Below, piece by piece: positions 949 through 64,000 of a stretch of 64,000 bases of DNA. The stretch covers positions 54,552 through 118,551 of the forward strand of contig CBDATS010000002.1 in the NCBI GenBank assembly GCA_965200245.1. Reading direction: 5' to 3'. A model generated the notes under the pieces. The model worked only from the letters and a program-made list of their open reading frames with translations, was not told where the DNA came from and did no database searches. The DNA is from a bacterium (lineage in GTDB: Bacteria; UBA8248). Made by a program: the position numbers and the translations under genes. Within the stretch, counting starts at the first letter, position 1. The number at the start of each line of letters is the position of its first letter.

Positions 949-1944
949 CTAGTTCTTCCAACCTTCAGCTGCCATGGCCTTCTTCACCATGCTCAAGTCC
1001 ATGCCCTCCTTACGGAGATCCACTGTTCGTTTCGCTTTGCGTTTTTCCAGAAGCACCTTGCCCATGTGATCAAACCATTTGTAATCCGCCTCCGAAGGGA
1101 GAAGACCAAATGTCAGATCGTTTACAGAGGCTTTCACTATTTTCAGCTTGATTTTCGAACCTTTCGATTGCAGGTGATTCAAGTAAATACGGGCAAATTT
1201 GTCGCGATCATCCCTGTGCAATTTCATGCCACGAATGAATCCTCTCAGGAATTTCGTGTAGACATCCTTGTTTTTCTTGAGGGTTTTTCCGTTGGCCATG
1301 AGGATCCACAGGTTATTTGCATATTTGCAGAAAGTTTCCACTGTGCGGGCATACCCTCTGTCGATTGCAATGGCAGCCTGCGGGTTGTTCAAGGCTATCA
1401 TATCCACTGTCCGGGATTTAAGCGCCGCCATGCGGGTATCATTGTTCATGTTTACAGTTGTGAAGTCATTCACTGTCAATCCGTATTTCGGCAGGATGAA
1501 GGTTGTCAGTGTGAAATATGTACCCGTTGCCTTACCTACTCCCAGTCTTTTGCCTTTCAAATCATGCAGGGTTTTCACAGGTGACTTGGGAGATGTGAGA
1601 ATTTTGTTTGCCTTGCACCAATAGTTGGCGTTTGCGATGCCGGGCGCATTCGCTCTTTTCGATATCGCGGAATAAAAAGCACGGTCGGCAGCACCACCGA
1701 TATCAAGAGAGTTCGCCAGAATCGCCTGGCGCATCAATTTGCCCTGCGGAAACTGTTTAATGGTGTATTTTCCCTTGCCGATGGTTTGATCATAGTAGCC
1801 CATCTTGTGAGCAACGATTGTAACCGCTCCCATGACAGAGCGATGATGGCCTATGCGGAACGGCGCCGCATGAGCGGAATATACCGTGAACAGAATTCCC
1901 GCCACGGTCATGGCGACGGCAAGAAACATACCTCTTCGACTCAT
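949..1944 (-). CDS. ABC transporter periplasmic substrate-binding protein (NMT1/THI5, NitT/TauT-like)
   Basis: Start moved to MSRRGMFLAVAMTVAGILFTVYSAHA (signal peptide) with a GAGGAGG RBS; SsuA/NMT1-like body. Confidence 0.8.
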   Translation of the reverse strand: MSRRGMFLAVAMTVAGILFTVYSAHAAPFRIGHHRSVMGAVTIVAHKMGYYDQTIGKGKYTIKQFPQGKLMRQAILANSLDIGGAADRAFYSAISKRANAPGIANANYWCKANKILTSPKSPVKTLHDLKGKRLGVGKATGTYFTLTTFILPKYGLTVNDFTTVNMNNDTRMAALKSRTVDMIALNNPQAAIAIDRGYARTVETFCKYANNLWILMANGKTLKKNKDVYTKFLRGFIRGMKLHRDDRDKFARIYLNHLQSKGSKIKLKIVKASVNDLTFGLLPSEADYKWFDHMGKVLLEKRKAKRTVDLRKEGMDLSMVKKAMAAEGWKN

Positions 1945-2168
1945 TACAATATCCTCCTCAAGATTCATCGCCCGAAGGCATTCACAAAAGAAACTCCAAA
2001 TAAGCAACCCGTTGCCGTGAAGCGAATTTCAATGCTGAAATTTTACTCATCTCTATGGGTATGAGAAACGTTAGCATACCTTGAACCGAAATTACATCCC
2101 GTCAGGCTGAAGGTATCCATCTTCCATTTTTCATCGATGAATCTCCGCCCTGTTCTGACTTGCCCTGC

Positions 2169-3380
2169 TCAGGTGATAAATTCCGGACCGGGACTTCGTC
2201 TCTGCAGGGACAAGGCCAGAAGAAAACCCACAAACAAAACGATTGAAAGTGTCCAGAAAGCGTTCAACATCCCTATTCTTTCACCAAGTAATGAAAGAGG
2301 AATCGCCGTCAGGCCAGCCAATATCCAGCCGCCCCCCAAAATCAAGGAACTCGCGAACCCCCGATGCTCGGGGAGATATTCCTGTGCCAGCGCTACCGAT
2401 ACACCCATGGGCACGAACGCTCCGGCGCCAATGACTGCGAGTGAAATATAAGCCCACTCCAGGGAAGAAACCTGGAACAACAACATGCCGACAAAAGCGC
2501 ATCCGACACCAATCGTAATCACCTTGGGTTTTCCATACTTGTCACCCAGGATACCGCCGAGCATTACGCCGATGGCTCCCGAGCAGAAAATGACCGTGTT
2601 GGCAATGCCGCCGCGCCAAAGCCCCAAACCCTTTTCGACGAATATCGTGGGCAAGAATCCTCCCAGATTCGCTAATGTCGTCCCTCTGACAACGGCGATG
2701 CCAAAGAGAAGAAGTATGGGTCCGCGAACACCCTTCAGGGAAGCCAGCAACCCAACACGCTCACTCGTACCTTCCACTTTCTTCTCTCTCTGTGGTGGAG
2801 CCGGCATACCCAACTTCACACCCCCCATGGCAAGCACCGCCACAAGTATGAACACCCACAGATACTCCATACCCATCTTTTCCGCGATGAATATGGCGAT
2901 CAACGGCCCGAACGCAAAACCGAGCCTGCCTCCCGTAACGAACAGGCTGACGATAATACCGGAATGCGCGGAACTCAGCCTGCCTGCTCTCGCGGCCATA
3001 TCCGGATGACAAAGCCCAAAAAGAATTCCCCCTGAAATCAGTGCCGCAGCCAAGCCATATATGCTTGTGACCCACCCGATTGCCGTAAAGGCGATGGAAC
3101 TGCCAATCAAACCTACGGCAAGCCAAGGCAGCCAGGGCCACCTGTCGATGACGATGCCCGTGATGGGTTGCGTGATGGAACCGCTCACCGCCTGACATGA
3201 AATCAGCAATCCGACCGTCGTGAGGCTTAGTCCCAGTTTTTCCTTCAGTAATGGAACAAGGGGCGCAAAGAAATTCGCCTGGCTATCCACCACGAAATGC
3301 GCAAAGAATATGAGGCCCGTTCCAGTCCAAGGCGAAGTGCGGAAAGACGGCTTTTCCGCGGCTTGGGTGTTCTCTTGCAT
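2169..3380 (-). CDS. MFS transporter
   Basis: About 400 aa, polytopic and hydrophobic, with MFS-like loop motifs; ATG at 3380 preceded by GAGGTG (alternative GTG at 3386). Confidence 0.8.
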   Translation of the reverse strand: MQENTQAAEKPSFRTSPWTGTGLIFFAHFVVDSQANFFAPLVPLLKEKLGLSLTTVGLLISCQAVSGSITQPITGIVIDRWPWLPWLAVGLIGSSIAFTAIGWVTSIYGLAAALISGGILFGLCHPDMAARAGRLSSAHSGIIVSLFVTGGRLGFAFGPLIAIFIAEKMGMEYLWVFILVAVLAMGGVKLGMPAPPQREKKVEGTSERVGLLASLKGVRGPILLLFGIAVVRGTTLANLGGFLPTIFVEKGLGLWRGGIANTVIFCSGAIGVMLGGILGDKYGKPKVITIGVGCAFVGMLLFQVSSLEWAYISLAVIGAGAFVPMGVSVALAQEYLPEHRGFASSLILGGGWILAGLTAIPLSLLGERIGMLNAFWTLSIVLFVGFLLALSLQRRSPGPEFIT

Positions 3381-4418: not shown

Positions 4419-5174
4419 CTATTGACACAACCTGCCCCCATCTACCAGCACAACCGCCCCGTTCATGTATGACGCTTCGTCCGACGCCATGAAAACGGCG
4501 CAGTCCGCGATTTCCTCGGGAGTCGCAAATCGTCCCAACGGTATATTACTCATCAGCCTCTCTCGTCTACCTGCTTCGACCTCTACACGATGCTTCGTGC
4601 CTTCGCTCAACGTCGTTCCCGGAGCTATGGCGTTGACACGAATCCCCTTAGGCCCGAGTTCGGCGGCATGCGCCTTCGTCATCAGATGCATGGCCCCTTT
4701 CGTCGCGCAATACAGGGAATTATCGGGTACTCCCGCCTCACCGGACGTCGAGCCAATGTTGATAATTTGACCCCCGGACCTGGGAATCATGTGCCTGGCG
4801 GCCAATCCGCTCAGCATAAACGAAGACATCGCGTTGACTTGAAACAGTGCGACCACGTCTTCATGCGATACTTCTTCTACGGGTTTGTTGCAGCGAATGC
4901 CGGCGCAGTTCACCAGTATATCGAGATACCCTAGATGCATGAGTGCGCGATTCATGAGTGGAGCAACATTCGCCAGGTTCATTAAGTCAACGCACTCTCC
5001 GGCAGCCGAAATTCCTTGAGCCTTGCAATGTTAGATCGTCTCCTGCAAGGCATCCCTGTTCCCGCCGCCCGCAAGATACAGCGAACAACCCTCCCCGGCG
5101 AAACGCCTTGCTATGGCGGAACCGATCCCCACAGAAGCACCGGTGATAAACGCTGTCTTTCCCTTTAGTCGCAT
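4419..5174 (-). pseudogene. SDR-family oxidoreductase interrupted by an in-frame TAA (codon 48, 5031-5033)
   Basis: The N-terminal Rossmann segment MRLKGKTAFITGASVGIGSAIARRF (from ATG 5174) is in the same frame as ORF 4419-4982 (NCAGI, YCATK motifs). Only one TAA separates them. Confidence 0.8.
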
Positions 5175-5189
5175 GCCGGATGGCCCCTT

Positions 5190-5744
5190 TTATCCTAGCG
5201 GAGGCTCCACTCCCTCAGGAAGCGGAAGTTCAAATGCGTTGAGCGTCATCGAGACTGTTGTGTAATGCCCGATGAGGCCAATCAACTCCACCAACCCGCG
5301 TTCCCCGAAATGATCGAACGCATTATGATAAACCTGATCGCTTACGAAGTGATTTTCATGCAGTTCGATACAAAAATCGTAGATCGCCTCCTCATCGCCA
5401 GCCATCCGTTCGGGTCGCTTGTTCTCCTGAACCGCCTTGATGATGTCAGGAGACAATCCTCCCTTTCTGGCCAGGGGTTCGTGGGCGTACCACTCGTACT
5501 GGGAACTCCAGAACCGGGCGGTGACAAGTATCGCAAACTCGCTCAGTCTGGGTTCAAAGAGTGTGCCATAGCGCAAATATCGCCCTGTTTCTTCCAGCTT
5601 TTCGAGGAAAGCGGGGCTTTTGAGCCATGCCAGAAATGGGCCGCGGACACCTCCTCTGGGGCCAGAGGCGATTTTTTCGTAGAGTTCTCTTTGCGAATCC
5701 GTCATCTGCTCGAACGGCGTTTCAATCAAACGAGTCATTGGCAT
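5190..5744 (-). CDS. Carboxymuconolactone decarboxylase (CMD/AhpD-like) family protein
   Basis: 184 aa; CMD-like helical pattern (ILVTARFWSSQYEWYAHEPLARKGGLS). Confidence 0.7.
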   Translation of the reverse strand: MPMTRLIETPFEQMTDSQRELYEKIASGPRGGVRGPFLAWLKSPAFLEKLEETGRYLRYGTLFEPRLSEFAILVTARFWSSQYEWYAHEPLARKGGLSPDIIKAVQENKRPERMAGDEEAIYDFCIELHENHFVSDQVYHNAFDHFGERGLVELIGLIGHYTTVSMTLNAFELPLPEGVEPPLG

Positions 5745-5941
5745 CTAATCTCCTTGGTTTATCTCCAACTTGAGCGGTGAAATTACCTGCTACAAAAGAA
5801 TATCGCAGGTTGCAAGGCGATGCTTAATTTGATACACAATGTTCAAGGTTGCGGGCGGCGCGACCAAGTTGAGTTTTCAGGGGATGTACGTGGGGTGAAG
5901 ATGGCCTCTACGCATTTCCAAAATTTGCAGGAGATCAGCAA

Positions 5942-12965: not shown

Positions 12966-13107
12966 TCAGTAACCCACACCCCTACATCGGAGCAGATAAG
13001 ACAGATACAGAATATTCCAAACAAGACGCGCAAAGACATTCGGTCGCTGAAATCGCTTAAGGAAAATCAACATTGCAAATGTCCGACGTAACGAAAGGGG
13101 CGAAACA

Positions 13108-14229
13108 ATGCAAAGCAGGAAAATGCGAAAACGAGCTTTTATTGTCGCAGCGGGGGTAATCTTTTCCATTGCTGCTGGGATCGGTGTTTCAGCGCTATTC
13201 CCGCGCTTTATGACTGGCCTGCTTTTCGGCGTAAATACTGCCCCCGTAAAGCTTTCTGTCAGCGACACACACAGCCCCCGTGAGACTGACGAGAAGACAA
13301 TCGCGATAGTAACCGCTGCCGATTCTTTCCTGTCCTCCTTGAGTACAGAACAAAAACAGGCCGCGACCTATGCATTTTCCGACAATAGGCAACGCTCGAA
13401 TTGGTCTAACTTCCCCGAAGGCATGATCCCCCGTGGCGGCTTAAAAATGGCCGCCCTTTCCGAAACCCAACAAACGAAGCTTGACAGTCTTCTTGCTGAA
13501 ATCATGAGTGCCAAAGGCATTCAAAACTTAAAATTTCAACTTGCCGCCGAAGAAACATTCCCAAAGGGCTCATTCAACAAGTACGGGGTCGAGTACTTCT
13601 ACGTTGCATTTTTGGGCGAACCCTCAACGACAAAACCCTAGATGTTCCAATTTGGTGGCCACCATCTAGCCATCAATGTAACGATCTACGGCGCAGGCGT
13701 AACATTTTCACCGATGCTCACTGGTGGCCATCCCCTCCATATTCAATACAACGGAAAGCAGATTTTCATAACCGAAGAAGAAACAGCAGCAGCCCAAGCC
13801 CTTCTCGACAGTCTCAACGACGAACAAAAAAAGATTGCTATCCGGAGTGAGCAAGCTATCGACCTTTTACTCGGGCCGGGTCAGTACGGCACTGTCGTGG
13901 CACCGGAAGGCATCAAGGGCAGCGACCTCACCGAGAGTCAAAAACAATCGCTCATAGCACTAATCAAAACGCGGTTAGACTTTATCAATGACAATGACCA
14001 TGCAGCAGCAATGGCCACTGTCATTGATGAGCTTGACGACACCTATTTCGGTTGGTGGGGGCCACAAGGAAAATTAGGATTTGCCTATTTTCGCATCACT
14101 GGCCCATCTCTAGTGATCGAATACGCGCCGCAAAATGACGCTGGCGACAGCGTTACGGATCACGCACACAGCATGTACCGCAACCCGGAAAACGACTATG
14201 GCTCTGCATGGATAGGGCAAAACAAATGA
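13108..14229 (+). pseudogene. DUF3500-family secreted protein with an in-frame TAG (13639-13641)
   Basis: ORFs 13108-13641 and 13642-14229 are contiguous in one frame. The junction reads STTKP-TAG-MFQFGGHHLAINV, where the family normally has W before the GHH motif. Confidence 0.75.
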
Positions 14230-24734: not shown

Positions 24735-26875
24735 ATGCATCTCGAGAACATTGATTTCCTGCAATTGCTCAACGGTGATGTCCAGTATGTCGTACCTCGC
24801 TGGCAACGTCGCTACTGTTGGGGACAAGCCGACATTGAGCGGCTTGTCGATGACCTGATTGCGGTCGCTGCCGCGGGAGACGACGCCACTCACTATGGGG
24901 GCACCCTCCTCACTTTCCCGGAACCGCGGGCGGCGGGTGTTCTGAGGACCATTCGTGTCGTCGACGGCCAGCAGAGGCTCACAACGGTGAGCATCCTGCT
25001 CGCATGCATTGCAACAAATCTCGAACGAGATGGCTCATGTCGTGATTGGACAGCAGAAATCATTCGCGAGCGGCGATTGACCAATCCCCATATGGAGTCA
25101 GAGAAACGCCTCAAATTGCAGCTGCAAACCAGAGACGAGGATGAATATCGCCGTGGTCTCGATGGTAGTCCCGAAGGAACCGGTGCGGTTGCTCAGGCTT
25201 GGCGGATTGCGCGGCGCTTGGTCGATCTGCACGATACGGATTCGCTACTACTGGGCCTTGAACGGCTCCAGGTGGTCAGCATCGGCCTTGACACCACGGA
25301 CGACCCGCAACAGATATTTGAGAGTTTGAACGCCACGGGTCGTCCGCTCACGGAAAGCGAGAAAGTCAAGAACTGGCTCTTGCTCGGACTGCCGGAAAAA
25401 CAGCAGCGGGAACTTCACGACGAATATTGGCGTAGCATTGAAAAAGCGCTCGGCGCTGAACACACGACCGAACCCATCGACACATTCCTTAGGGATGTCA
25501 TGCGCTGGCGCACAGGCGAGGTCCATGGCGGCAACAAGACCTATGAACAGCTTCGACGCTGGGCGCTGAGGCAAGGGGACGGGAAGAATCGTGCCGAAAT
25601 TTGCCGCGATCTGGCATGTCTCGCGAAACTGTATGGAATTCTGACCGGCACAGCGGCGAAATTCTCCGACAAGAAAGTTGACAAGGAGATCAGGCATCTG
25701 CGGGCGTTGGGACTGGATGTCCACCGTCCGCTGACGTTGCGGCTGCTCCATGAGACTTCCGATACCGATTCGACATCTGTGGCGAACTCCGATCTGGCGA
25801 AAACCCTCGCAGGAATTGGAGCTTGGATCACGCGCCTATGGCTGGCCGATAGGCCAACGGCCGGACTGAACAAGGCCATGGCGGAACTTGCCTATAGTGC
25901 TGCTGGACCCGGCGAGAGAGAGGATTATACGGAGTATTGGCTCGATCAGATACGCAGCCTTCGAAACCAACGCATCGGTGTTCCAAGAGACGAAGAAGTT
26001 CGCGAAGGCATGCGTATGCGTCCAGCCTATGGGGGTGGAGTTACTCAATCCACATTTGCCGTTCTTTGCGAACTGATGGAAGCGGAACATCCTGACGAGG
26101 CGCCGGCACGCTGTCGTCTGACAGTCGAGCATGTGATGCCGCAGAAGCTCACGAACGAATGGAAACTCTATCTCGGAGAAAACGCTGAGGAAATACATGA
26201 GCGGTATTGCCATCGGTTCGCGAACTAACCCTGAGCGGAGACATTTCCAACGCCAGCATGGGTGCAAATACCTTCGCTTCTAAACAGGAGATATACCGCA
26301 ACAGTTCGATTGGAATGACGAGAAGACTCGCTGAAGAGAATGCATGGAATGAGGCAACTCTCGAACGACGCGCCGAAGACATCGCTCGACGGGCTCTCGA
26401 CCGCTGGCCGTGGTCCGACCATGGAACTCAGGCAGACGCAAATTGGTCAGATGGCGCATCCGTGACGGAGCGATTCTGGAGAATTTTCAAGGAAATCACG
26501 GGTGGTGTTCCGGGACAGAAGGAAACCTGGCGTCACCGAAATCTGTGGACGAAACCCTGCAATTCGTCAGGTGACTGTATCGGCATTTACGTCGGCATTG
26601 AGTATGAGGTAGCCTGGCTCTACGTCTTGGCGGGTGATCAGCAATCGGCAAACAAGACGGTACGAAGTCGGAAACTCTCGCGACTTATTTGCGACTCAAT
26701 GTCGGGTCAGGAGATTTCCGGCGACCTGGAGAAAGAAAGCGAGTCCGGGAGAACTGTGTGCGTCAAGCGGCACTGGCCCACCGATGATGAAGATGAATGG
26801 CCGGAAACTGCGAGATGGATCAAGGCTCAATACGACAGACTGCAGGGGATTTTAGCGAATTCATCCATCGAATGA
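24735..26875 (+). pseudogene. GmrSD-like type IV restriction enzyme (DUF262 + DUF1524 + C-terminal DUF4268-like tail), frameshifted
   Basis: DUF262 motif VVDGQQRLTT; HNH-like TVEHVMPQ...HERYCHRFAN then TAA at 26226-26228. The next frame continues LTLSGDISNASMGANTF. One missing nucleotide restores HRFANLTLSG. Confidence 0.75.
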
Positions 26876-50985: not shown

Positions 50986-52355
50986 ATGCCGCAGCCAACT
51001 GACACCCCCAAGCTAGCCGACGCCTACGCCGAATCCCTGCCCGCCTCGCGTGCCCTCTACGAGCGGGCACAAGAGGTCTTCCCCGACGGGGTGACACACG
51101 ACAACCGCAGGATGCAGCCGTTTCCCATCTACGTCGAGCGTGCCGAGGGCGCACACAAGTGGGATGTGGACGGTAACCGCTACATCGACTACTGGATGGG
51201 CCACGGCGCGCTTCTCCATGGACACAACCCGCCTCACATCCGGGATGCCGTGAGCGAGGCCGTTCTCAAGGGTTCACATTACGGGGCGAGCCACGGGCCG
51301 GAGGTGGAATGGGGTGAATGGGTGCAACGCCTCGTGCCCTGCGCCGAGCGGGTGCGCTTTACCGCTTCGGGAACCGAGGCCACCCACATGGCACTCCGGC
51401 TCGCGCGCGCCTTCACAGGCCGGAAACGCGTTGTCAAGTTCGCAGGCCATTTCCACGGCTGGCACGAGGGACTCGAAATCGGCGTACGCGCCCCTACACG
51501 AATGCGCCCGAAGCGGGACAACTGGAAGTGGTGACGGACCTGGTCACCGTCTGCCCGCCGGACGACACCGAAGCCGTCCGGGAGGCACTCGCACCGGGCG
51601 AGGTCGCTGCGCTCATCCTGGAGCCGACCGGCGGACATTTCGGCACTATCCCGATGAGACAGGATTTCGTTGCCGCGCTCAGGGAAGAGACGGAAAAGTC
51701 GGGCACACTCCTCGTTTTCGATGAGGTGGTAACCGGCTTTCGCGTCGCGCCGGGCGGCGCGCAGGCGCATTTCTGTGTAACGCCCGATCTGGCGAGCCTC
51801 GCCAAGATACTCGCAGGCGGCCTGCCGGGGGGAGCCGTCGTGGGACGGGCTGACGTGCTCGAGTATCTCGCCACCAAGCCGGATCCCGAGGTGAACCGCC
51901 ACACGAAAATCCCCCATCACGGTACCTTCAACGCGAACCCCATATCTGCGGCCGCAGGCGTCGCCATGCTCTCGACCCTGAGGGATGGCCGGATAACCGA
52001 AGAGGTGAACACGCAGGCGCATAAACTCAGATGCGGGATGAACGAGATTCTCGCGCGAGAAGCCGTGGCCTGGCGGGTGTATGGCGAATACAGCGACTGG
52101 AAAATATTCTTCGACGCCGATGTCCCGCCGAAAGACGGAGAGGATCAGGATGTAGGCGGAATCGACTGGCGGCGCCTCGATTCCAAAAACGCGCAGAAAA
52201 GCCGGGCACTCAGACAATCGCTGATCCTCCACGGTGTAGATTTCAACGGCGCGCGCGCTTTGGTGGGAACATGTCACACGGACGACGTAATCGAGGAAAC
52301 TCTTGCCGCCTTCCGGGCGGGCGTCCGGACCATGAAGGAAGAAGGCATCGCCTAG
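50986..52355 (+). pseudogene. Class III aminotransferase (GSA-aminomutase-like), frameshifted in a C4 run (51491-51494)
   Basis: The N-terminal part ends HFHGWHEGLEIGVRAP. The next frame continues YTNAPEAGQLEVV...LVFDEVVTGFR...KILAGGLPGG. One extra C restores the frame. Confidence 0.75.
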
Positions 52356-55411: not shown

Positions 55412-56056
55412 TCACCCCCAAGTGTTCACATGCACAATCTCGTCGAGCGGACGACGCACAGCGGGCTTGAAGTTCGTTCCCAGCTTGTAGGCCACCGGAA
55501 TCAGCGCCACCTGCATGAAATCATCCGGCACGCCGAGAATCTCCGCGGCCTCGGCCTCGCAGCGCAGGTGCAACGTGGTGAACACGGAACCAAGACCTCG
55601 TGAGCGCAGTGCCAGCTGGAAACTCCACACGGCCGGCATGATGGAACCCAGCAGACCCGCCCACATGAATCTCGGCGGGCTTTCGGGCAGGAAATTCTGG
55701 ATACAGGGAATCACTTGCACGGGGGCGTGCTCGATGTTCTCGGCCAGATAGATGGCGGAATCGAACACCCGCTCGTCCTGCGTGGCCCCGCTCTCGCGCG
55801 CCTGCGCCAGACCCTGCGCAAGATATTCGTCTCCCCCCTTTCGGTAGAGCCGTCCGAGTTCTCGGCGTTTTTCCTCATCCGTCACCACGAGCCAGCGCCA
55901 GCCCTGCCGGTTCGAACCCGTAGGAGCCTGCAGGCCGAGTTCAAGACAATCCAACACAACCTGCGTCGGCACTTCACGGGTGAAATCGAGGCGCTTGCGT
56001 ACCGAACGCGTGGTGGAGAGAAGCTTGTCGGTCATTTCGAGGTCAAAATCGGCCAT
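55412..56056 (-). CDS. Nitroreductase family protein
   Basis: 214 aa; TRSVRKRLDF and APTGSNRQGWRWLVV motifs; AAGGAGG RBS. Confidence 0.85.
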   Translation of the reverse strand: MADFDLEMTDKLLSTTRSVRKRLDFTREVPTQVVLDCLELGLQAPTGSNRQGWRWLVVTDEEKRRELGRLYRKGGDEYLAQGLAQARESGATQDERVFDSAIYLAENIEHAPVQVIPCIQNFLPESPPRFMWAGLLGSIMPAVWSFQLALRSRGLGSVFTTLHLRCEAEAAEILGVPDDFMQVALIPVAYKLGTNFKPAVRRPLDEIVHVNTWG

Positions 56057-56214
56057 GCGGCCCTCCTTTCAGATGCAGGTCTCGTTTGTTACAAGCGGGA
56101 TACGGCATGGTACCAGAACTGAAAACTCCGCGTAACACACATGCGCGCCGGTTCCCAAGATTTCAGGGCTTGCCTATAATCATCCAAAGATTCCATCACC
56201 AAAGCGAGGAAACC

Positions 56215-56898
56215 ATGAATAGTCAAGCGCAACAAGCAAGCAGAATCCGGTTGCTCGACCCCGATGAGGCGGCGGGCGATACGGCGCGTTTTTTCGAGGC
56301 GACGCGCGAGTTTCTCGGCCGCATCCCCAATTCCGCGCTTGCGATGGCGAACACGCCCTACATCGCGCGCTTCTACCTCCCCTTCAACGCCACGCTCCAG
56401 CGCGAGGGCATGGGCGGGTTACTCACGTGCAAGATCAAGGAGATCGTGGTCCTGAAGACGAGCTTCGTGAATTCGTGCGCCTACTGAATCGCTCACAACA
56501 CGGCGCTTGGTCAAGCAACGGGAATCACTGATGAGCAAATCGAGGCCATCGCCTCGGACGATTACATGACCTCCCCGGTTTTAAGCCCGCGCGAGCGTGC
56601 CGCCTGCCTGTGGGCGGAGCACTTTACGAAAAATACCGCACGCGAGAACCCGGGCGTGCTCGAAGAGGTAAAAAAACACTTCACCGACGGGGAGATCGTC
56701 GAAATGTCGCTCATGAGCGGCAAACAGGGCATGATGAACCGCTTCATGGACTCGTTCGGCATCCCTATCGAGGACGAGGGCGAGGTGAACAAGATTAAAA
56801 AATCCGTGCGCGGAAATCCTGACAAGATGAAAGCCTACCTACAGGCGCTCATCGACAACTGGCCCGAGGACTTTCCAGAACCCAGCCCGGATGATTAG
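56215..56898 (+). CDS. AhpD/CMD-family protein with an in-frame TGA (56485-56487) at the CxxC position; selenoprotein candidate or pseudogene
   Basis: The two ORFs (56086-56487 and 56566-56898) share one frame with a single TGA and no other stop between them. Motif VNSCAY-TGA-IAHN; GAGGA RBS before the ATG at 56215. Confidence 0.6.
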
Positions 56899-57211
56899 AA
56901 GCGCCTGTGGCGGGCGGAGGCCGCCGCACGCACAGAAGTGACATTCAAGCTTACGCGCCTCTTGCTACAGGTGCCCTCTCCTCACGGATCGAACCATCTC
57001 TTGAGTTGCGCGCAGAAGGTCACGACGCCGGCGAGTCCCACGGACGGAACACTAACCTGCGCTTGCACCTGGAATGGCAGTTACGGCATGCCTGTCCTGG
57101 CAGTTATTCGTCCTGAAATGGGACAACCATGGGGGACATCCCTTCAAATACGGACACGGCGGCAGGACGGATCCGAAAATGCCAACCTACGAGGGATTGC
57201 ACAGCGCTTTT

Positions 57212-58141
57212 TCAACATCTATTCATGGCCTCATGGCCGAGGCCGAGTATCCATCCTTCTTCCGTCCTGACGATTCGCCGCTCGTCGAGATTGAGATAAG
57301 GAGCACCCTCGAACAAGGGGCCTAGACGGCCCAATGCGTCGAGCCACGCGAAAGCCTCCGCATTCACGCGAACCTGAGCGGCGTCGAGTATCTCACCCAC
57401 ATTCTGTCGCTTTTCGATCTCTATCCTGAGGAGGGAGGGATAGATTTCACAAATCACGGCGGACCCTTCCCCTTCTGGCACTTCGGGCACGCAGAGACCG
57501 GTATCGAAGGGCCAGACGGCGAGGCGGCGTTCTTTGAGGAGCGAATGCTCGACGAGGCGCTTGAGAGCGGGAATGCCCAGGAGTGTCTGCGAACCGACGG
57601 AACCTGCGTAGAACAGTTGCCACACGCTCTTGGCGCCTTTGGCTTTATGATCGGCGATTCGCCATTCGCAGGGATGCCCCTTCTCGTTCGTACGGTCTGA
57701 GGCGTTTGTCGGCACGTTGGGGTAATTCTGTTCTTTCGGGCGCCCCCAAAAGGGACCAGTCCCCGGATAAGTTTCGTTGATCTTCGCTGCGACCTCGAAG
57801 CGGTTGTTCTTATTTTTAGAGTTGTCACAGATATGGAGCTTCAACCAATCCCAAAGTGCAAAGGCCGAATCCTCGCCCGTCAGGTGCTTCGCAACTCCGG
57901 CGGGATATCCGAAGGGAAAATCGAAGCCTATCAATACCCGCCGGTCAGCGTCGAGTTCCTTTGAGATAAGGCAGGCGAGCCGCTCCACAGCATCATGTCG
58001 GGTGCGGGCGTAAGCGAGTTCTACCACGCCGTCCCTGGCGGCGGCCCAGCAGATGGCGTCTTCCGTATAACCCTCGGAGCTCGGCGACGAACGTGCCGAC
58101 CAGTCGACCATGACGTATGTGTCGAAGATGTTCTCGGGCAA
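57212..58141 (-). CDS. Conserved hypothetical protein (N-terminal VDWSA motif, DUF429-like)
   Basis: 309 aa; TTG start with an AGGAGGA RBS; coherent globular sequence; function not recognised. Confidence 0.55.
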   Translation of the reverse strand: MPENIFDTYVMVDWSARSSPSSEGYTEDAICWAAARDGVVELAYARTRHDAVERLACLISKELDADRRVLIGFDFPFGYPAGVAKHLTGEDSAFALWDWLKLHICDNSKNKNNRFEVAAKINETYPGTGPFWGRPKEQNYPNVPTNASDRTNEKGHPCEWRIADHKAKGAKSVWQLFYAGSVGSQTLLGIPALKRLVEHSLLKERRLAVWPFDTGLCVPEVPEGEGSAVICEIYPSLLRIEIEKRQNVGEILDAAQVRVNAEAFAWLDALGRLGPLFEGAPYLNLDERRIVRTEEGWILGLGHEAMNRC

Positions 58142-58204
58142 GCGGTACTCCTCCTAAAAACGGATTGTCCTCACGAGAGGAACCCTGTGTCAGACGACCT
58201 CACA

Positions 58205-59380
58205 CTAGCCGCAGAGTTTCTCCTGGAGCCAGTCAAACATGTAGGTCGCGCCGATGGCGTAGTTGTCGCGCTGGCAGTGCTGGGAGCCGCCCTCCTCCAC
58301 GGTGAAGACCTTGAGCGTCTTGTCTTCGGAACCCACGGCGTCGTAGAGGGCCTGCGCGTCTTCGAGTGGAATCTGCTTGTCGTCCTCCCCGTGCGTGACG
58401 AGGAAGGGACACCGCATCTTCTGCACCACTCCGTCGAGCCGGAAGCCCTCGAGCTTGACCAGGGCGTCGTCGAGCGAATCCGCGTTCAGTATCCACTGGA
58501 TGTGATGGCCCGGAACGGAAAGTTCTGCCTTGAAGGAAGCTTCGATGCGCTTTTTCCAGGTGGCATGGTAGTCCCATATCGCCCCCCATGCCAGACACGC
58601 CTTGCAGCGGTCTTCCATGCTGGCGATGCGCGGCGCATAGTAACCGCCCAGGCTGATGGCCATGACACCCGCGCGGTTCACATCCACATCGTCTCTGGTT
58701 TCGAGGTAATCGAGTGCGGCCGAGCCCGCGACCTCGTAGTCGGGTCGCAGGTAGATTTCGCGCAGCCGGATGGCCTCGCCCGTGCCGGGGCCGTCCATGA
58801 TCAGGCAGCTCATGCCCCGGCGAACGAGGTCTTCCACGCCGCGCGTGAACTGAAGCTCCTTGGTGACGTCGAGTCCGTCGAAGAAGATCACCACAGGTGG
58901 TCTGCTCTCCTCGGTGTTCTCTGCGTGCACGAAATAGCCCGGCAGGTGCTTTCCACCCTCGAAGGGAACCTCCACGGCCTCGATTCGGGGCCTGTCCGTC
59001 AGGCGCACGAAACGGCGGAACACGTCGAGCGATTTCTCGAATGTGGCGATGGCTCGTTCGTCCTTGGGTGTCCGGAAACGCTCGCCCATCTGGTAGTAGC
59101 AGGTGGCACGCTTGTAGTGGGAGGCGGCGGAGAGATATCTGTTCGTCTCCTCGGCAGCACGCCCCAGATCGCGCACGATGTCGCCCATGCGATCCCACTC
59201 GTCGAACCAAAGGTCGTCGTCACCGAGCTTCCTGTAGAGGCGGCGGCAAACCTTGTCGACTTCGCCGATCTCCGTCCCGCCCCATTGCGCACTGGACACC
59301 ATGCCGCAGATGGCGGCCGACCAGCGGTAGTCTTCGGGAAAATACGTGAACCAGTTCGTGTTCGCGGGTGCTTCCGCCAT
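58205..59380 (-). CDS. Alpha/beta hydrolase (dienelactone hydrolase/peptidase S9-like)
   Basis: Nucleophile elbow ISLGG and C-terminal THGEDD; start at MAEAPANT with an AAGGAGG RBS. Confidence 0.75.
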   Translation of the reverse strand: MAEAPANTNWFTYFPEDYRWSAAICGMVSSAQWGGTEIGEVDKVCRRLYRKLGDDDLWFDEWDRMGDIVRDLGRAAEETNRYLSAASHYKRATCYYQMGERFRTPKDERAIATFEKSLDVFRRFVRLTDRPRIEAVEVPFEGGKHLPGYFVHAENTEESRPPVVIFFDGLDVTKELQFTRGVEDLVRRGMSCLIMDGPGTGEAIRLREIYLRPDYEVAGSAALDYLETRDDVDVNRAGVMAISLGGYYAPRIASMEDRCKACLAWGAIWDYHATWKKRIEASFKAELSVPGHHIQWILNADSLDDALVKLEGFRLDGVVQKMRCPFLVTHGEDDKQIPLEDAQALYDAVGSEDKTLKVFTVEEGGSQHCQRDNYAIGATYMFDWLQEKLCG

Positions 59381-59559
59381 GAAGAGCCTCCTTTGGACCG
59401 CATCCATATCGCACCAGATCACATGAACGCCCAGCCCTGCGAGTCGCGCGAATGCGGGTTATCGGGTTGAATGTAAACGGTGGGGATCATATCTTTGTTC
59501 CGAGCCGATAATCAAACTGATGAGCGGATTGCGGGCGTCCCGAGAATGAGGAATGTGCG

Positions 59560-60918
59560 ATGAGCGAAAGGAAAGACTTCGGAGCCATACTGGACTATAT
59601 CGACGCGAACGCGGAGCGTTTCGTGGCCGATTTACAGGAGCTATGTCGCCAGCCGAGCATCTCCACAACCAACGTCGGAATAAGGGAGATGGCGGCCCTG
59701 CTCGAATCCCGCGTGGCGCGCTCAGGCCTTGAGACGACGCTTCACGAGACCGGAGGCAACCCGATTCTCACCGCCCATCTCGCGGGCAAGGGCGACAAGA
59801 CGCTTCTCTTCTACAACCATTACGACGTGCAGCCTGCCGAGCCGCTTTCTGAATGGAACACCCCGCCCTTCGACGCCCAAGTGGTGGATGGCGCCATCAT
59901 CGCGCGGGGTGCGACGGACAACAAGGGCAACATCATGAGTCGCCTCGCGGCGTTCGAGGCGTTTCTCGCGGTGCGGGGAGAACTCCCCTGCACGGTCAAG
60001 TACATCATCGAGGGCGAAGAGGAGGTGGGAAGCCCATCACTCGAACCCTTCGTCATCGAAAATGCGGATTTACTCTCTGCAGACGGCTGCGTATGGGAGG
60101 ACAACACCACGCGGGTGGACATCCCCGTCCTGTCGCTCGGCAACAAGGGGCTTTGCTACATGGAACTCACCTGCCGGACGGCGAACGTGGACTTCCACAG
60201 TTCGAACGCACAGATATACGAAAACGCCGCCTGGCGGATGACCTGGGCACTCTCGACCATGAAGGATCGAGACGAAAACGTGCTCGTGGATGGATTCTAT
60301 GACGATGTGCTGCCCGTCAATGAAATCGAGGACAGTCTCATACGGCGTATCAGGCCCTACAACGGGGCCGAGCGCATCGAGAAGTTCGAACTTCGCAGGT
60401 TCCTCCTCGACATGAAAGATGAGGACCTCCCCCGCCGTCACCTCGCGAACCCCACCTTCAACATCGCAGGCTTTGACGGTGGCTACACCGGTGATGGGGT
60501 GAAAACCATCGTTTCGGCCCGCGCGCGCGCCAAGGTGGACTGCCGCCTCGTACCGAACCAGGATCCTTTCAGGATTCGCGATTGCGTGCGCGCACACCTT
60601 GACAAGCACGGCTTCGGGGATATCGGCGTAGAGCTTCTCTTCACCTCCTGCCCGGCGAAGAGCGACCCCGAGGCCGATATCGTCAAGGCCTGCAACGCAG
60701 CGGCACAGAGGCTCTACAGGCAGGACGCCATCATCAATCCCTTCGGTAACGGCAGCACGCCGACCTGGATCGTCTTGAAACATTTGGGCATCCCGCTCTC
60801 CTCCACAGGGGTGGGCCGCATCACCTCGCGAACGCACAGCGCGAACGAGAACCTCAAGATCGAGGACCTGATCGACGGGGCCAAGTGGATGGCCGCTATC
60901 TGCGAGGAGTTCAGCTGA
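59560..60918 (+). CDS. M20-family metallopeptidase/deacylase
   Basis: YNHYDVQP, ARGATDNKG and EGEEEVGS metal-site motifs. Confidence 0.85.
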   Translation: MSERKDFGAILDYIDANAERFVADLQELCRQPSISTTNVGIREMAALLESRVARSGLETTLHETGGNPILTAHLAGKGDKTLLFYNHYDVQPAEPLSEWNTPPFDAQVVDGAIIARGATDNKGNIMSRLAAFEAFLAVRGELPCTVKYIIEGEEEVGSPSLEPFVIENADLLSADGCVWEDNTTRVDIPVLSLGNKGLCYMELTCRTANVDFHSSNAQIYENAAWRMTWALSTMKDRDENVLVDGFYDDVLPVNEIEDSLIRRIRPYNGAERIEKFELRRFLLDMKDEDLPRRHLANPTFNIAGFDGGYTGDGVKTIVSARARAKVDCRLVPNQDPFRIRDCVRAHLDKHGFGDIGVELLFTSCPAKSDPEADIVKACNAAAQRLYRQDAIINPFGNGSTPTWIVLKHLGIPLSSTGVGRITSRTHSANENLKIEDLIDGAKWMAAICEEFS

Positions 60919-60993
60919 CAGTAAAGAGTTCATGCGGGCCGCGTTCGCGCGTCCGTTTTCATTGCGATGGCATCACGCCCACAGGAGAAGAAG

Positions 60994-61389
60994 ATGCATG
61001 TTTTCGATCTGGAAAAGGAAAAGGAGTTCAGCAGCGTAAAGCACGTGGAGAAAATCCTGGGCCGTTTCGAGGAAGGTGACGTGACGGTGGCCTGTTGGGA
61101 ACCCGGTCAGGTAAGTCCCTACCACTGCCACCCCTACGCGACGGAGATTTACTTCTGCTACAAGGGCGGCGGCAGAATGAAGACCCCCACCGGCGAGGTC
61201 GACGTCATACCCGGCTCTTTCATCGTCCATCCCCCGGGCGAACTTCACGAGTACACGAACGGCTCGGAACGCACGCTCCTCTACCGGGTGCGCTACGGAG
61301 GTGACAAGGTTTCGCGCCACAAGGAATGGCCCACCAACCCGAACTGGAAAGCCAGGCCCGAGGACGAAGAGTATTTCAAGGGCGAGTAA
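60994..61389 (+). CDS. Cupin-domain protein
   Basis: HCHPYATEIYF...PPGELHEY cupin motifs; AGGAGA RBS. Confidence 0.75.
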   Translation: MHVFDLEKEKEFSSVKHVEKILGRFEEGDVTVACWEPGQVSPYHCHPYATEIYFCYKGGGRMKTPTGEVDVIPGSFIVHPPGELHEYTNGSERTLLYRVRYGGDKVSRHKEWPTNPNWKARPEDEEYFKGE

Positions 61390-61494
61390 GCGTCGGTGAG
61401 TTACAGGGGCGGACCTGTGTAGCCGTCTCTACGAAATTACGCCTGAACCGATACCGAACCCTGAAACGAGAGGCGATGAGCCCCTGGCCGGAGC

Positions 61495-62292
61495 GTGCCC
61501 GTGAGCGACACGATGAATTTCGACGCCGGCGCCTCGCGCGGTGCCGAAGCCATTTACCAGACTCCGGACATGGTGGAGGCTAGACGGCAAACGATAGAAG
61601 CTTTGCGTCTCGCACCCGGCGTACGCGTTCTGGACGTGGGTTCGGGCCCCGGACTATTTGTCGATGAGATAGCGCACATTTGCGGCCCGACGGGTTTTGT
61701 GCACGGCGTCGACCTGAGCGAATCGATGAACGAGATCGCCCGGGCGCGCTGTGCCGATAAACCCTGGGTCGACTTTCAAGTCGCCGACGCCGTATCACTC
61801 CCGTTCGAAGACGGGGATTTCGACGCCTGCGTGTGCGTGCAGACGCTCGAGTTTGTGGCTGACGTGGGCGCGGCCTTGCGCGAGATTCACCGCGTGTTGA
61901 AACCCGGCGGACGACTCGTGGCCAGCGACACCGACTGGGGCACCACGACGTGGCACTGCAAGAATGCGGCGCTCTGCGAGCGGGTGATGGCTGGTTGGCT
62001 GGAAGGCTTCGCCCACCTGAGGCTGCCGCTTACGCTCAGGTCCAGCATCGAGGCGGCAGGCTTCGTCGGTGCTTCCGTACAGGCGACTCCCATTCTCAAC
62101 ACCGCCTACGGACCCGAGGGCTTCAGCTTTCACCTCATACGAATGATCCAGGGCGTCGTCCCGGGACGTACCGGCCTCACGCAGGAAGAGGTCGATACCT
62201 GGGCGGAAGACATGCGGGAACAAGGCGAGATGGGCGTTTATTTCTTTGCGCACTACAGGTACATGTTCACGGCAGACAAGTCGGGCCTGTAA
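61495..62292 (+). CDS. Class I SAM-dependent methyltransferase
   Basis: VLDVGSGPG motif I and LKPGGRL; the start may instead be the ATG at 61513. Confidence 0.8.
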   Translation: MPVSDTMNFDAGASRGAEAIYQTPDMVEARRQTIEALRLAPGVRVLDVGSGPGLFVDEIAHICGPTGFVHGVDLSESMNEIARARCADKPWVDFQVADAVSLPFEDGDFDACVCVQTLEFVADVGAALREIHRVLKPGGRLVASDTDWGTTTWHCKNAALCERVMAGWLEGFAHLRLPLTLRSSIEAAGFVGASVQATPILNTAYGPEGFSFHLIRMIQGVVPGRTGLTQEEVDTWAEDMREQGEMGVYFFAHYRYMFTADKSGL

Positions 62293-62295
62293 GGG

Positions 62296-63012
62296 TTATC
62301 CCTCTTTCGATTTAATCTTCTTGTACACTACGGGGATGAGCGAGAGCACGGCGAGTCCCACGAGCGCGATGATGACCTGCGGCGTCAGTATCCCCTTGGC
62401 GGAGAACTCACCCCCAGACTCGAATATGCTGCCGAGTCCCGCACCCACCGAAGCGAAGACGAACGATCCGGGAATGATCCCAAGGAACGTGCCGACAACG
62501 TAGACGCTCAAGGACACCCCGAGAAACGCAGGTACGAGGTTCACCACGAAAAAAGGAAAGATTGGCACCAGTCTCAAGACGAGAAGATAGCTCAACGCGT
62601 TTTCCTGAAAACCCTCCTCCATCTTCTGAAGCCAGGGGCCGGCCTTCGCCCGCAGGGGGTCTCCGAGTGAGGTCTTTGCTGCAATGAAGAGAACTGTCGC
62701 ACCCACCGTCGCACCCACGACGATGTAGAGCGCACCCCAGATAGCCCCAAAGAGAAAACCGCCGGTGATGCTCATCACCAGCCCCCCGGGAAGCGAGAAT
62801 ATTGTCACCGCCGCGTAGGCGAGCATGTAGGCGATGACGGCGAGAGTACCGTTCGTTTGCACCCAAGTCTTCAGGGCGTCCTGGTTCTCCCGCAAGGTAT
62901 CGAAAGTGAGGTAGCGACCCAGCCCCGAGTAGAAGAAGGCGACGAGCACAATGACGAGGAGCAACGGAATGATGAAATTTTTATACGATAGTTTTTTTCC
63001 TGTTTCGCTCAT
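62296..63012 (-). CDS. TVP38/TMEM64 (DedA-related) membrane protein
   Basis: 238 aa; LRLVPIFPFFVVN motif and multiple TM segments. Confidence 0.8.
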   Translation of the reverse strand: MSETGKKLSYKNFIIPLLLVIVLVAFFYSGLGRYLTFDTLRENQDALKTWVQTNGTLAVIAYMLAYAAVTIFSLPGGLVMSITGGFLFGAIWGALYIVVGATVGATVLFIAAKTSLGDPLRAKAGPWLQKMEEGFQENALSYLLVLRLVPIFPFFVVNLVPAFLGVSLSVYVVGTFLGIIPGSFVFASVGAGLGSIFESGGEFSAKGILTPQVIIALVGLAVLSLIPVVYKKIKSKEG

Positions 63013-63073
63013 TTTCGGATGACTGCTTTCATATTTTGGGCAGCGATTCGATAGGAATTTTTATTCCCTTTGG

Positions 63074-63268
63074 TTAGAAACTCAGCGCGCGCCTGCATGG
63101 CAATCCGCTTCTATCACATTTCACTTGCAGGGTGAAATCGGGATTGAAGTCGAAAATAAGTGCGATTTTCGACCTGATTCGGGGATAATAACTTTCTGCG
63201 CAACTGGTGATGAACTGATGTACACACGGCTGAAACCACATCAGACCCTCGGCATCCCACTTGTTCAT
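63074..63268 (-). CDS. Hypothetical small protein, ATGA-coupled to the upstream oxidoreductase
   Basis: 64 aa; its ATG overlaps the TGA of the Gfo/Idh/MocA gene. Confidence 0.35.
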   Translation of the reverse strand: MNKWDAEGLMWFQPCVHQFITSCAESYYPRIRSKIALIFDFNPDFTLQVKCDRSGLPCRRALSF

Positions 63269-64000
63269 AGATACCCCCGCACCTCCACCGTTCTGCCCAG
63301 ACGCGAACTCGCGTCCGCCGCGAAGACCACGGCGAGGTTCTCGTGCGCCACGCGGCCGTCCACCTCCGGCCTGCGGTCCTCGCGCACGCAATCGGCGAAG
63401 TCCCCGAGCGCGTCTCGGAACATGTCCCCCTCCGGCATGTGGTATACCGCGTCCTCCCCCAGCGGGTCCCTGTCCACGTGCAGGCGAATCGGTTCCGGCG
63501 CCTTCGACGGGTCGCGCCACTGCTGGCCCGTGATCCGGAAGTGCGCCACGCCCCCCGTGCCGTGCACGTTCATGTGAAACGCCCAAGGACACGCCCAGCC
63601 ACCACCCACGTAGGAGAGCACGCCGCTCTCGTGTTCCAGAATCATCATCGAGGTGTCGTCCACGTCCGCGGTCGCAAAGGCACGCTTCAGTTTCGCCGTC
63701 ACGCTCCTCACGGGCCCGTACAGGTAGCGGAACGTGTCGATGTGGTGAATCGACAGCTGGATCACCACACCCGTAGGGTTGAACTCCCGGCTCGAGCGCC
63801 ACTTCTCCGGCGTGAGTTCCAGCCCGCGCTCTGTGCAGAAGTTGCTCTCGCTCATCGAGACCCTGCCGATCTCGCCCGCATCCACGAGTTCCTTCAGGCG
63901 TCTCGACACGGCCAGGCGACGGGCACTGTGGCCCACCGCCAGTTTCACGCCCGCCCCCTCCACCGCATCCACGATCGCACGGGAATCCTCCAGGCTGTGG
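63265..64000 (-). CDS. Gfo/Idh/MocA-family oxidoreductase (C-terminal part; 5' end outside the window)
   Basis: C-terminal alpha/beta domain pattern (IGRVSMSESNF, IHHIDTFRYL); the ORF runs off the window edge. Confidence 0.7.
   Translation of the reverse strand, partial: HSLEDSRAIVDAVEGAGVKLAVGHSARRLAVSRRLKELVDAGEIGRVSMSESNFCTERGLELTPEKWRSSREFNPTGVVIQLSIHHIDTFRYLYGPVRSVTAKLKRAFATADVDDTSMMILEHESGVLSYVGGGWACPWAFHMNVHGTGGVAHFRITGQQWRDPSKAPEPIRLHVDRDPLGEDAVYHMPEGDMFRDALGDFADCVREDRRPEVDGRVAHENLAVVFAADASSRLGRTVEVRGYL

Follow-up and report, generated by a model that had tools for sequence, protein, structure and literature searches.

The earliest report of AhpD-like selenoproteins with a CxxU redox motif comes from the Sargasso Sea, where 27 sequences belonging to COG2128 were found (Zhang, Fomenko & Gladyshev 2005, PMC1088965), and in the GOS study of 2008 the group 'AhpD-like 1' comprised 299 sequences and ranked fourth by count among the tabulated prokaryotic selenoprotein families (PMC2398784). 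These reports are the marine surveys to which an earlier note on the present DNA had rightly referred as containing AhpD-like proteins with selenocysteine (Sec). The family is also listed in BSepDB (PMC13326102), and a 2026 review places AhpD-like selenoproteins under TIGR01926 (PMC13188914). With respect to the insertion of Sec, the SECIS element of E. coli fdhF serves as a further reference, a hairpin within the coding region directly 3' of the UGA with the tetraloop GGUC. The earlier note had put this GGUC at positions +22 to +25, which is borne out by an fdhF sequence that occurs, annotated as fdhF, at 100% identity in more than 5,400 genomes of E. coli.

The DNA analysed here is a stretch of 64 kb, referred to as the window, in which the gene at 56215-56898 very probably encodes a functional selenoprotein of the AhpD-like or peroxidase-related branch of the CMD family, as judged from sequence comparisons. 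The proposal of a candidate selenoprotein with a CxxU motif, made in the earlier note, is supported by an in-frame TGA in 151 loci, by a dN/dS of 0.087 downstream of the TGA and by a hairpin that occurs in the TGA forms only.

Reading frame, protein family and the TGA column

The gene consists of one frame of 227 codons which runs from the ATG at 56215 to the TAG ending at 56898, and its sole internal stop is the TGA at 56485-56487. The ORF list and a straight translation of 56086-56898 agree with two earlier statements, namely that the ORFs at 56086-56487 and 56566-56898 lie in the same frame and are parted by this TGA alone, and that read-through from an ATG with a supporting ribosome-binding site (GAGGA precedes it) gives 227 residues. 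The read-through product would have a mass of about 25 kDa and contains the TGA in the context KTSFVNSC88-A-Y-[TGA]91-I-A-H94-NTALGQATG, that is, as a C88-A-Y-U91 motif of the CxxU type with Sec predicted at the second position. The features of the locus are compiled in the table.

Features of the predicted selenoprotein gene and its surroundings (positions refer to the window; signed numbers are counted from the U of the UGA)
Feature	Position	Strand	Remarks
Predicted AhpD-like (CMD/peroxidase-related) selenoprotein gene	56215..56898	+	227 codons including one predicted Sec-UGA; terminator TAG 56896-56898
Shine-Dalgarno-like GAGGA	56206..56210	+	4 nt ahead of ATG 56215; read from the sequence
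Glu76 codon (KIKE)	56440..56442	+	invariant in alignment A2; spacing E76-x11-C88
Cys88 codon TGC, first residue of the CxxU redox motif	56476..56478	+	column is Cys in every TGA form
In-frame TGA, predicted selenocysteine codon U91	56485..56487	+	aligned with the second Cys of CxxC
Predicted Sec-containing peptide SC(A)Y-U-IAHNTALGQATGITDEQIEAIASDDYMTSPVLSPR			spans U91
His94 codon, invariant H of U-x-x-H-N-T	56494..56496	+	family alignment
SECIS-like hairpin	56501..56520	+	synonymous-site conservation, pair counts, covariation, folding
Hairpin upper stem GCUU/AAGC	56505-56508/56513-56516	+	apical loop GGUC 56509-56512 (+25 to +28)
Hairpin lower pairs C17-G36 and G18-C35		+	family consensus adds a fifth upper pair, C20-G33 (56504/56517)
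Outer 5-bp helix GCTCA/TGAGC	56491-56495 with 56532-56536	+	confined to the window and its clade
Nitroreductase-family gene	55412..56056	-	divergently transcribed neighbour; context

The protein matches Pfam CMD (PF02627) with 34.7 bits at a cutoff of 23. Its top NCBIfam match, for a query with U replaced by C, is TIGR01926, 'peroxidase-related enzyme', which is covered completely (model positions 1-178 of 178) at 57.5 bits compared to a curated cutoff of 81.8. Two other NCBIfam families were rejected, NF053654 (YciW-related (seleno)protein; GroundWater_YciW) with a score of 54.3 at a cutoff of 310 and NF041238 (AhpD_rel_CFYUT) with 30.1 at a cutoff of 175; both are members of this superfamily, likewise with Sec and Cys variants, but the scores stay below these equivalog cutoffs. 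A profile search of solved structures returned, among others, PA0269 (2ijc, 2o4d, 7xw1) at 1e-17, Atu0492, 2pfx, 2prr, 6k40 and Bmp8. The NGCAYC of PA0269 aligns residue for residue with the motif and, therefore, the TGA takes the place of the second CxxC cysteine, as the earlier note had claimed. As a stand-in for the window protein, an AlphaFold model was made for the Cys-containing homologue P0003, which JGI names an 'uncharacterized peroxidase-related enzyme'. The model is all-helical with a mean pLDDT of 71 (82-97 in the core), and its best PDB matches were 6k40, 2prr, 3c1l, 2gmy and Bmp8 with TM-scores to the target of 0.76-0.86. Together, the PF02627 match, the PDB profiles at 1e-17 and the similarity of the P0003 model to 6k40, 2prr and 3c1l indicate that the window protein has a CMD/AhpD core domain and fold. 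Beyond the end of the TIGR01926 model there is a C-terminal tail of about 40 residues (189-227; 56779-56895), which is conserved as EVNKIK...Y..L..NWP..FP.P with the invariant residues K193, I194, P202, Y208, W216, P217, F220, P221 and P223, and for which the confidence of the P0003 model is low.

A protein search across the whole database yielded only 12 homologous proteins. Cys is present at the TGA column in P0003, within a complete CxxC, and in P0009, which has Ser at the first motif position; P0004, P0005 and P0008 are listed with W at this column, and P0007 and P0010 begin directly past it. The DNA of each of the four contigs examined has C-A/E-Y-TGA here, with the TGA in frame. Two collection scans with a family profile added 160 further loci. 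Of 164 homologous loci with the motif, orthologues and paralogues from genomes and metagenomes, 151 have TGA and 13 have a Cys codon (TGC 12, TGT 1); a few further loci are second domains without Cys. The in-frame UGA is, thus, aligned with a Cys of homologues, including that of the PA0269 CxxC, and homologues have Cys at the column, never Trp or Gly. The TGA forms come from at least six labelled lineages, among them Nitrospinota/Nitrospinaceae, Rhodospirillales, SAR324, Acidimicrobiia, Betaproteobacteria/Burkholderiales and Tectomicrobia. With 151 independent TGA loci, a misread base at 56485-56487 is unlikely. In some of the sequences (loci L046, L054, L059, L120 and L134 and proteins P0001, P0002 and P0006; betaproteobacterial and some other loci), a second in-frame CMD domain follows about 234-250 codons after the TGA-containing one. 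Either one Cys or both are missing from this second domain (KTHHxH..A/S.Y[T/L/M], or SAYC), and gene callers report from these two-domain forms only the part after the TGA, of 353-366 aa.

Twenty loci encode proteins with 86-93% amino-acid identity to that of the window and are syntenic on the upstream side; several come from 'Nitrospinota bacterium' MAGs of sponge origin or from complete chromosomes labelled 'MAG: bacterium'. Of these orthologues, nineteen are intact, each with 684 nt, a single TGA and the identical start codon and terminal stop position. The remaining one, L036 (chromosome OZ253442.1, 10001-10680), has a length difference of 1 nt and seven in-frame stops near the 3' end, and is either a real pseudogene or the result of a long-read indel error. 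For the window and its 19 intact orthologues (20 sequences), Nei-Gojobori-type counting gave a dN/dS of 0.143 for codons 1-90 and of 0.087 for codons 92-227, at a dS of about 0.35-0.47. Purifying selection behind the TGA is, thus, no weaker than in front of it. The dN/dS of 0.087 indicates that the 136 codons downstream of the TGA are translated and under selection. The genomes of relatives contain a second TGA paralogue, 52-56% identical (pairs L009 and L038, L015 and L045, L021 and L049, L022 and L035, L024 and L052, L013 and L040, L014 and L034, L016 and L053), with a dN/dS of 0.088 after the TGA, and FO_M_Nitrospinota_01 has three TGA copies (L025, L027 and L028). Hence, the UGA is conserved and the sequence is constrained on both of its sides. 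The GGUC hairpin described below is common to all copies of these paralogue sets.

The hairpin downstream of the TGA

The hairpin GCUU-GGUC-AAGC, which the earlier note had folded by hand at 56505-56516, exists as described, with the GGUC at +25 to +28 from the U of the UGA. The stem of 4 bp given there applies to the window, but not to the family, in which the conserved stem has 5 bp (C20-G33, G21-C32, C22-G31, U23-A30 and U24-A29) and the consensus reads CGCUU-GGUC-AAGCG. Among 123 distinct TGA forms, third positions are 85-97% conserved in the six codons from +16 to +33 (ACG GCG CTT GGT CAA GCG) as compared to 30-76% in the flanks, and the loop bases G25, G26 and C28 are invariant. This synonymous freezing is limited to the TGA forms. 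The Cys forms (8 distinct sequences) encode L-G-M/R/A by GGC ATG, GGC CGG or GGC GCG and cannot form the GGUC hairpin, and a conserved downstream structure is accordingly kept in the one group and absent from the other. Compensatory double changes were found at the pair U24-A29, which is replaced by A-U in three sequences (CTA...CTA/CTG) and by C-G in two (CTC...CGG/CGA), each combining a synonymous Leu change with a replacement of Gln by Leu or Arg. In alignment A3, the hairpin positions pair in 83% of the cells as opposed to 23-59% in slid registers, and the covariation score exceeds those of all 500 shuffles and of all slid registers.

For the 60 nt that follow the TGA, folding energies had z-scores of about 0 relative to shuffles in the window and five relatives, with the exception of L006 (-2.15). 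As the energy is no better than that of shuffled sequences, the significance of the hairpin rests on the comparative data. RNAalifold returned an empty consensus structure at default settings, and Rfam, which contains nothing SECIS-like, matched neither the whole window at gathering thresholds nor 56440-56600 at E <= 10. In bSECISearch, the apical loop is expected at about 16-37 nt from the UGA. The stem-loop found here has its loop within this range, with the two conserved G residues and the compensatory pair 24-29, in the window on a stem of 4 bp. The larger helix that the earlier note had drawn around the hairpin (56491-495 with 56532-536) is part of the minimum free energy fold of the window; as a feature of the family it was rejected, since all five pairs are complete in only 7 of the 123 sequences.

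Two synonymous changes set the window apart from the other TGA forms. An A at +33 (56517; GCA for GCG) occurs in the window only, among the 123 distinct sequences, and turns the fifth upper pair into a C20-A33 mismatch; the 28-nt hairpin has -5.0 kcal/mol in the window, with its 4-bp upper stem, and -7.0 kcal/mol in L007. Nine other sequences of alignment A3 are also without the C20-G33 pair, having U or C at +33, and their genes are otherwise intact. The second change, a G-to-T at +9 (56493), is likewise unique to the window and completes the outer helix GCTCA/TGAGC, which, to go by the sequence, may compensate for the lost C20-G33 pair. The element CGCUU-GGUC-AAGCG is almost letter-for-letter the same in the TGA forms of at least six labelled lineages. 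One might speculate, as a rather doubtful idea, that such a 14-nt mini-SECIS, fixed at +20 to +33 in these lineages, has spread together with the gene by horizontal transfer or represents a minimal portable SelB module, with the window as a natural variant in which, by loss of the fifth stem pair and gain of the outer helix, the SECIS is being remodelled rather than decaying.

Selenocysteine machinery, competing explanations and genomic context

If the selenoprotein reading is true, the source genome encodes the machinery for Sec incorporation. Within the 64-kb window, no tRNA-Sec, selA, selB or selD was found by ARAGORN, Rfam, Pfam and tblastn, the Pfam search for SelA, SelB and SelD covering the 20 largest window ORFs; ARAGORN also returned no tRNA-Sec on the window together with 166 loci (1.63 Mb). 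The SelD and SelA proteins of E. coli, used as tblastn queries, gave matches in L026 and L090 only. Both loci contain a 755-aa Pyr_redox_2-SelD fusion (AIRS and AIRS_C), which in L026, from a Rhodospirillales MAG, is encoded at 1027-3294 on the minus strand, convergent to the AhpD-like TGA gene (355-1005) and 10-20 nt from the gene end. This Ndh-SelD fusion type has been described (PMC2398784). For FO_M_Nitrospinota_01, BSepDB lists 54 selenoprotein genes (PMC13326102). A scan of the window for further TGA-split ORF pairs was too noisy, at a GC content of 57%, to show more selenoprotein candidates.

Based on these data, we propose that the UGA at codon 91 would be decoded as selenocysteine. 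The short hairpin would form in the mRNA directly past the UGA and would bring SelB-GTP-Sec-tRNA(Sec) to the ribosome, by analogy to E. coli fdhF and one codon further out. The product would be an all-helical AhpD-core protein in which the C88-A-Y-U91 redox centre is predicted to be positioned at the start of a helix, flanked by E76 and H94. In M. tuberculosis AhpD, the second Cys of the CxxC is the nucleophile. By extension from AhpD biochemistry, U91 may attack an oxidised substrate, which might be a hydroperoxide or else the oxidised form of a peroxiredoxin or thiol partner, C88 may then resolve the adduct to yield a selenenylsulfide, and a cellular thiol reductant may re-reduce the centre. 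E76 would correspond to the Glu in the AhpD signature E-x11-CxxC and is, by analogy with the M. tuberculosis protein, a candidate for the proton relay.

It might be argued that the gene is genuine in the lineage while the copy in the window is impaired or newly decaying, the weaker SECIS stem leading mostly to termination and release of a 90-residue fragment. Such a loss would be in line with the C20-A33 mismatch, which the window alone shows among the 123 sequences, and with a hairpin that is weaker by about 2 kcal/mol than that of L007. In addition, two other genes in the window, encoding a DUF3500 protein and a class-III aminotransferase, are disrupted and the orthologue L036 is frameshifted, and for this reason a small probability is kept for a recent loss of function. 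Nevertheless, we consider it improbable: the ORF of the window carries no other lesion, the comparison with relatives after the TGA gives a dN of 0.03-0.06 against a dS of 0.5-1.0, and the nine A3 sequences that also lack C20-G33 have kept an intact gene. Moreover, the outer helix completed by the unique change at +9 may compensate, and the A at +33 may equally well be a base-call error.

The earlier note had regarded a plain pseudogene as a real alternative, in which a nonsense mutation has converted the TGC or TGT of an ordinary CxxC AhpD/CMD gene into TGA. A single base separates these codons, and other pseudogenes do exist within the window; yet the 151 loci from distant lineages that have TGA in this very column, the low dN/dS downstream of it and an RNA element that is kept only in TGA forms effectively exclude this explanation for the family and the clade, and we give it hardly any weight for the locus. 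The chances are just as slender that the locus comprises two separate genes, one for a 90-residue N-terminal and one for a downstream C-terminal protein, or that TGA has been reassigned to Trp or Gly, as public annotations would have it, which either split the gene (84 + 140 aa in L001, 84 + 124 aa in L002) or give W. The Cys-form homologues, however, are single polypeptides with the CxxC lying across the junction, and the TGA is followed by ATC, the next ATG being 27 codons on, yet the intervening codons are conserved. A reassigned TGA is at odds with a homologue column that holds Cys and with the fact that TGA is the terminator of 9 of the 18 Pfam-supported ORFs in the window, which argues against a genetic code with TGA as a sense codon and for a local recoding. 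A functional selenoprotein remains the explanation that we favour.

The remark of the earlier note that further genes in the window are disrupted was correct. The DUF3500 (PF12006) gene at 13051-14229 on the plus strand is split by an in-frame TAG (13639-13641), with model positions 3-106 before and 110-296 after the stop, and is probably a nonsense pseudogene. The class-III aminotransferase gene (50986-52355, plus strand) lies in two frames, of which 50986-51534 corresponds to positions 4-129 and 51318-52355 to positions 181-335 of PF00202. Its orthologue in L007 is a single intact ORF of 474 aa (4421-5845), indicating a frameshift or an assembly error in the window. The 6.3 kb or so right after the selenoprotein gene (56900-63265) have no counterpart in most close relatives, where the match to 63265-64000 of the window often begins within 0.04-1.5 kb of the selenoprotein gene. 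This variable or inserted segment comprises a 309-aa ORF without Pfam match and genes for an FrsA-like esterase, an M20 peptidase and a methyltransferase. A gene for a GmrSD-type restriction endonuclease (PF03235 and PF07510) at 24735-26228 on the plus strand is a defence gene that is unrelated to the selenoprotein gene.

Relation to known selenoproteins and AhpD-type proteins

The window gene is an unannotated additional member of the known AhpD-like CxxU family. As this family has been known since 2005, the selenoprotein call is, in our view, correct but ordinary, and general knowledge of selenoproteins is left unchanged by it; for the organism, the recognised gene would mean one more selenoprotein in its redox and antioxidant repertoire. 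In every public relative that we examined, including L001, an NCBI Nitrospinota MAG, the callers of NCBI, JGI and ENA split the gene or translate the TGA as Trp. The family is, thus, systematically mis-annotated in Nitrospinota-labelled symbiont MAGs and in many other MAGs. The alignment of 110-123 distinct downstream sequences provides a compact SECIS consensus, which could improve bacterial SECIS predictors.

Among the Cys-type proteins with an AhpD core are PA0269/AhpD of P. aeruginosa, D. radiodurans AhpD (6k40), 2prr, 2oyo, 2pfx, mlr4105 (3c1l) and the debrominase Bmp8 (6ohi). The all-helical fold is shared between these proteins and the family of the window, and their N-G-C-A-Y-C can be aligned position by position with the family motif; they differ from the family in having Cys in place of the TGA, an identity of only 21-32% and no C-terminal tail. 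The signature of M. tuberculosis AhpD, E-x11-C-x-x-C-x3-H, is matched by E76-x11-C88-x-x-U91, while the His is found at +3 (H94) rather than at +4. Membership in the M. tuberculosis type was rejected on account of this spacing and because 1gu9 and 1lw1 match the P0003 model at E > 1 only.

With the E. coli fdhF SECIS, the element described here shares the location directly 3' of the UGA within the coding region and the identical GGUC tetraloop, the G residues of which are invariant in the family. Differences exist in the position of the loop, which is shifted away from the UGA by exactly one codon, in the closing pair, which is U-A here and A-U in fdhF, and in the upper stem, which has just 5 bp (4 bp in the window) and no obvious bulged U, the SelB site being a prediction. 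The closest correspondence is to the AhpD-like selenoprotein family itself, which likewise originates from marine and symbiont bacteria and has MCB9421940.1 as its published representative. Common to both are the CMD/AhpD core, a CxxU with Sec at the second position, the existence of Cys homologues and a SECIS downstream with G in the apical loop, whereas the window protein is distinguished by a score below the TIGR01926 cutoff and by its conserved tail of about 40 residues.
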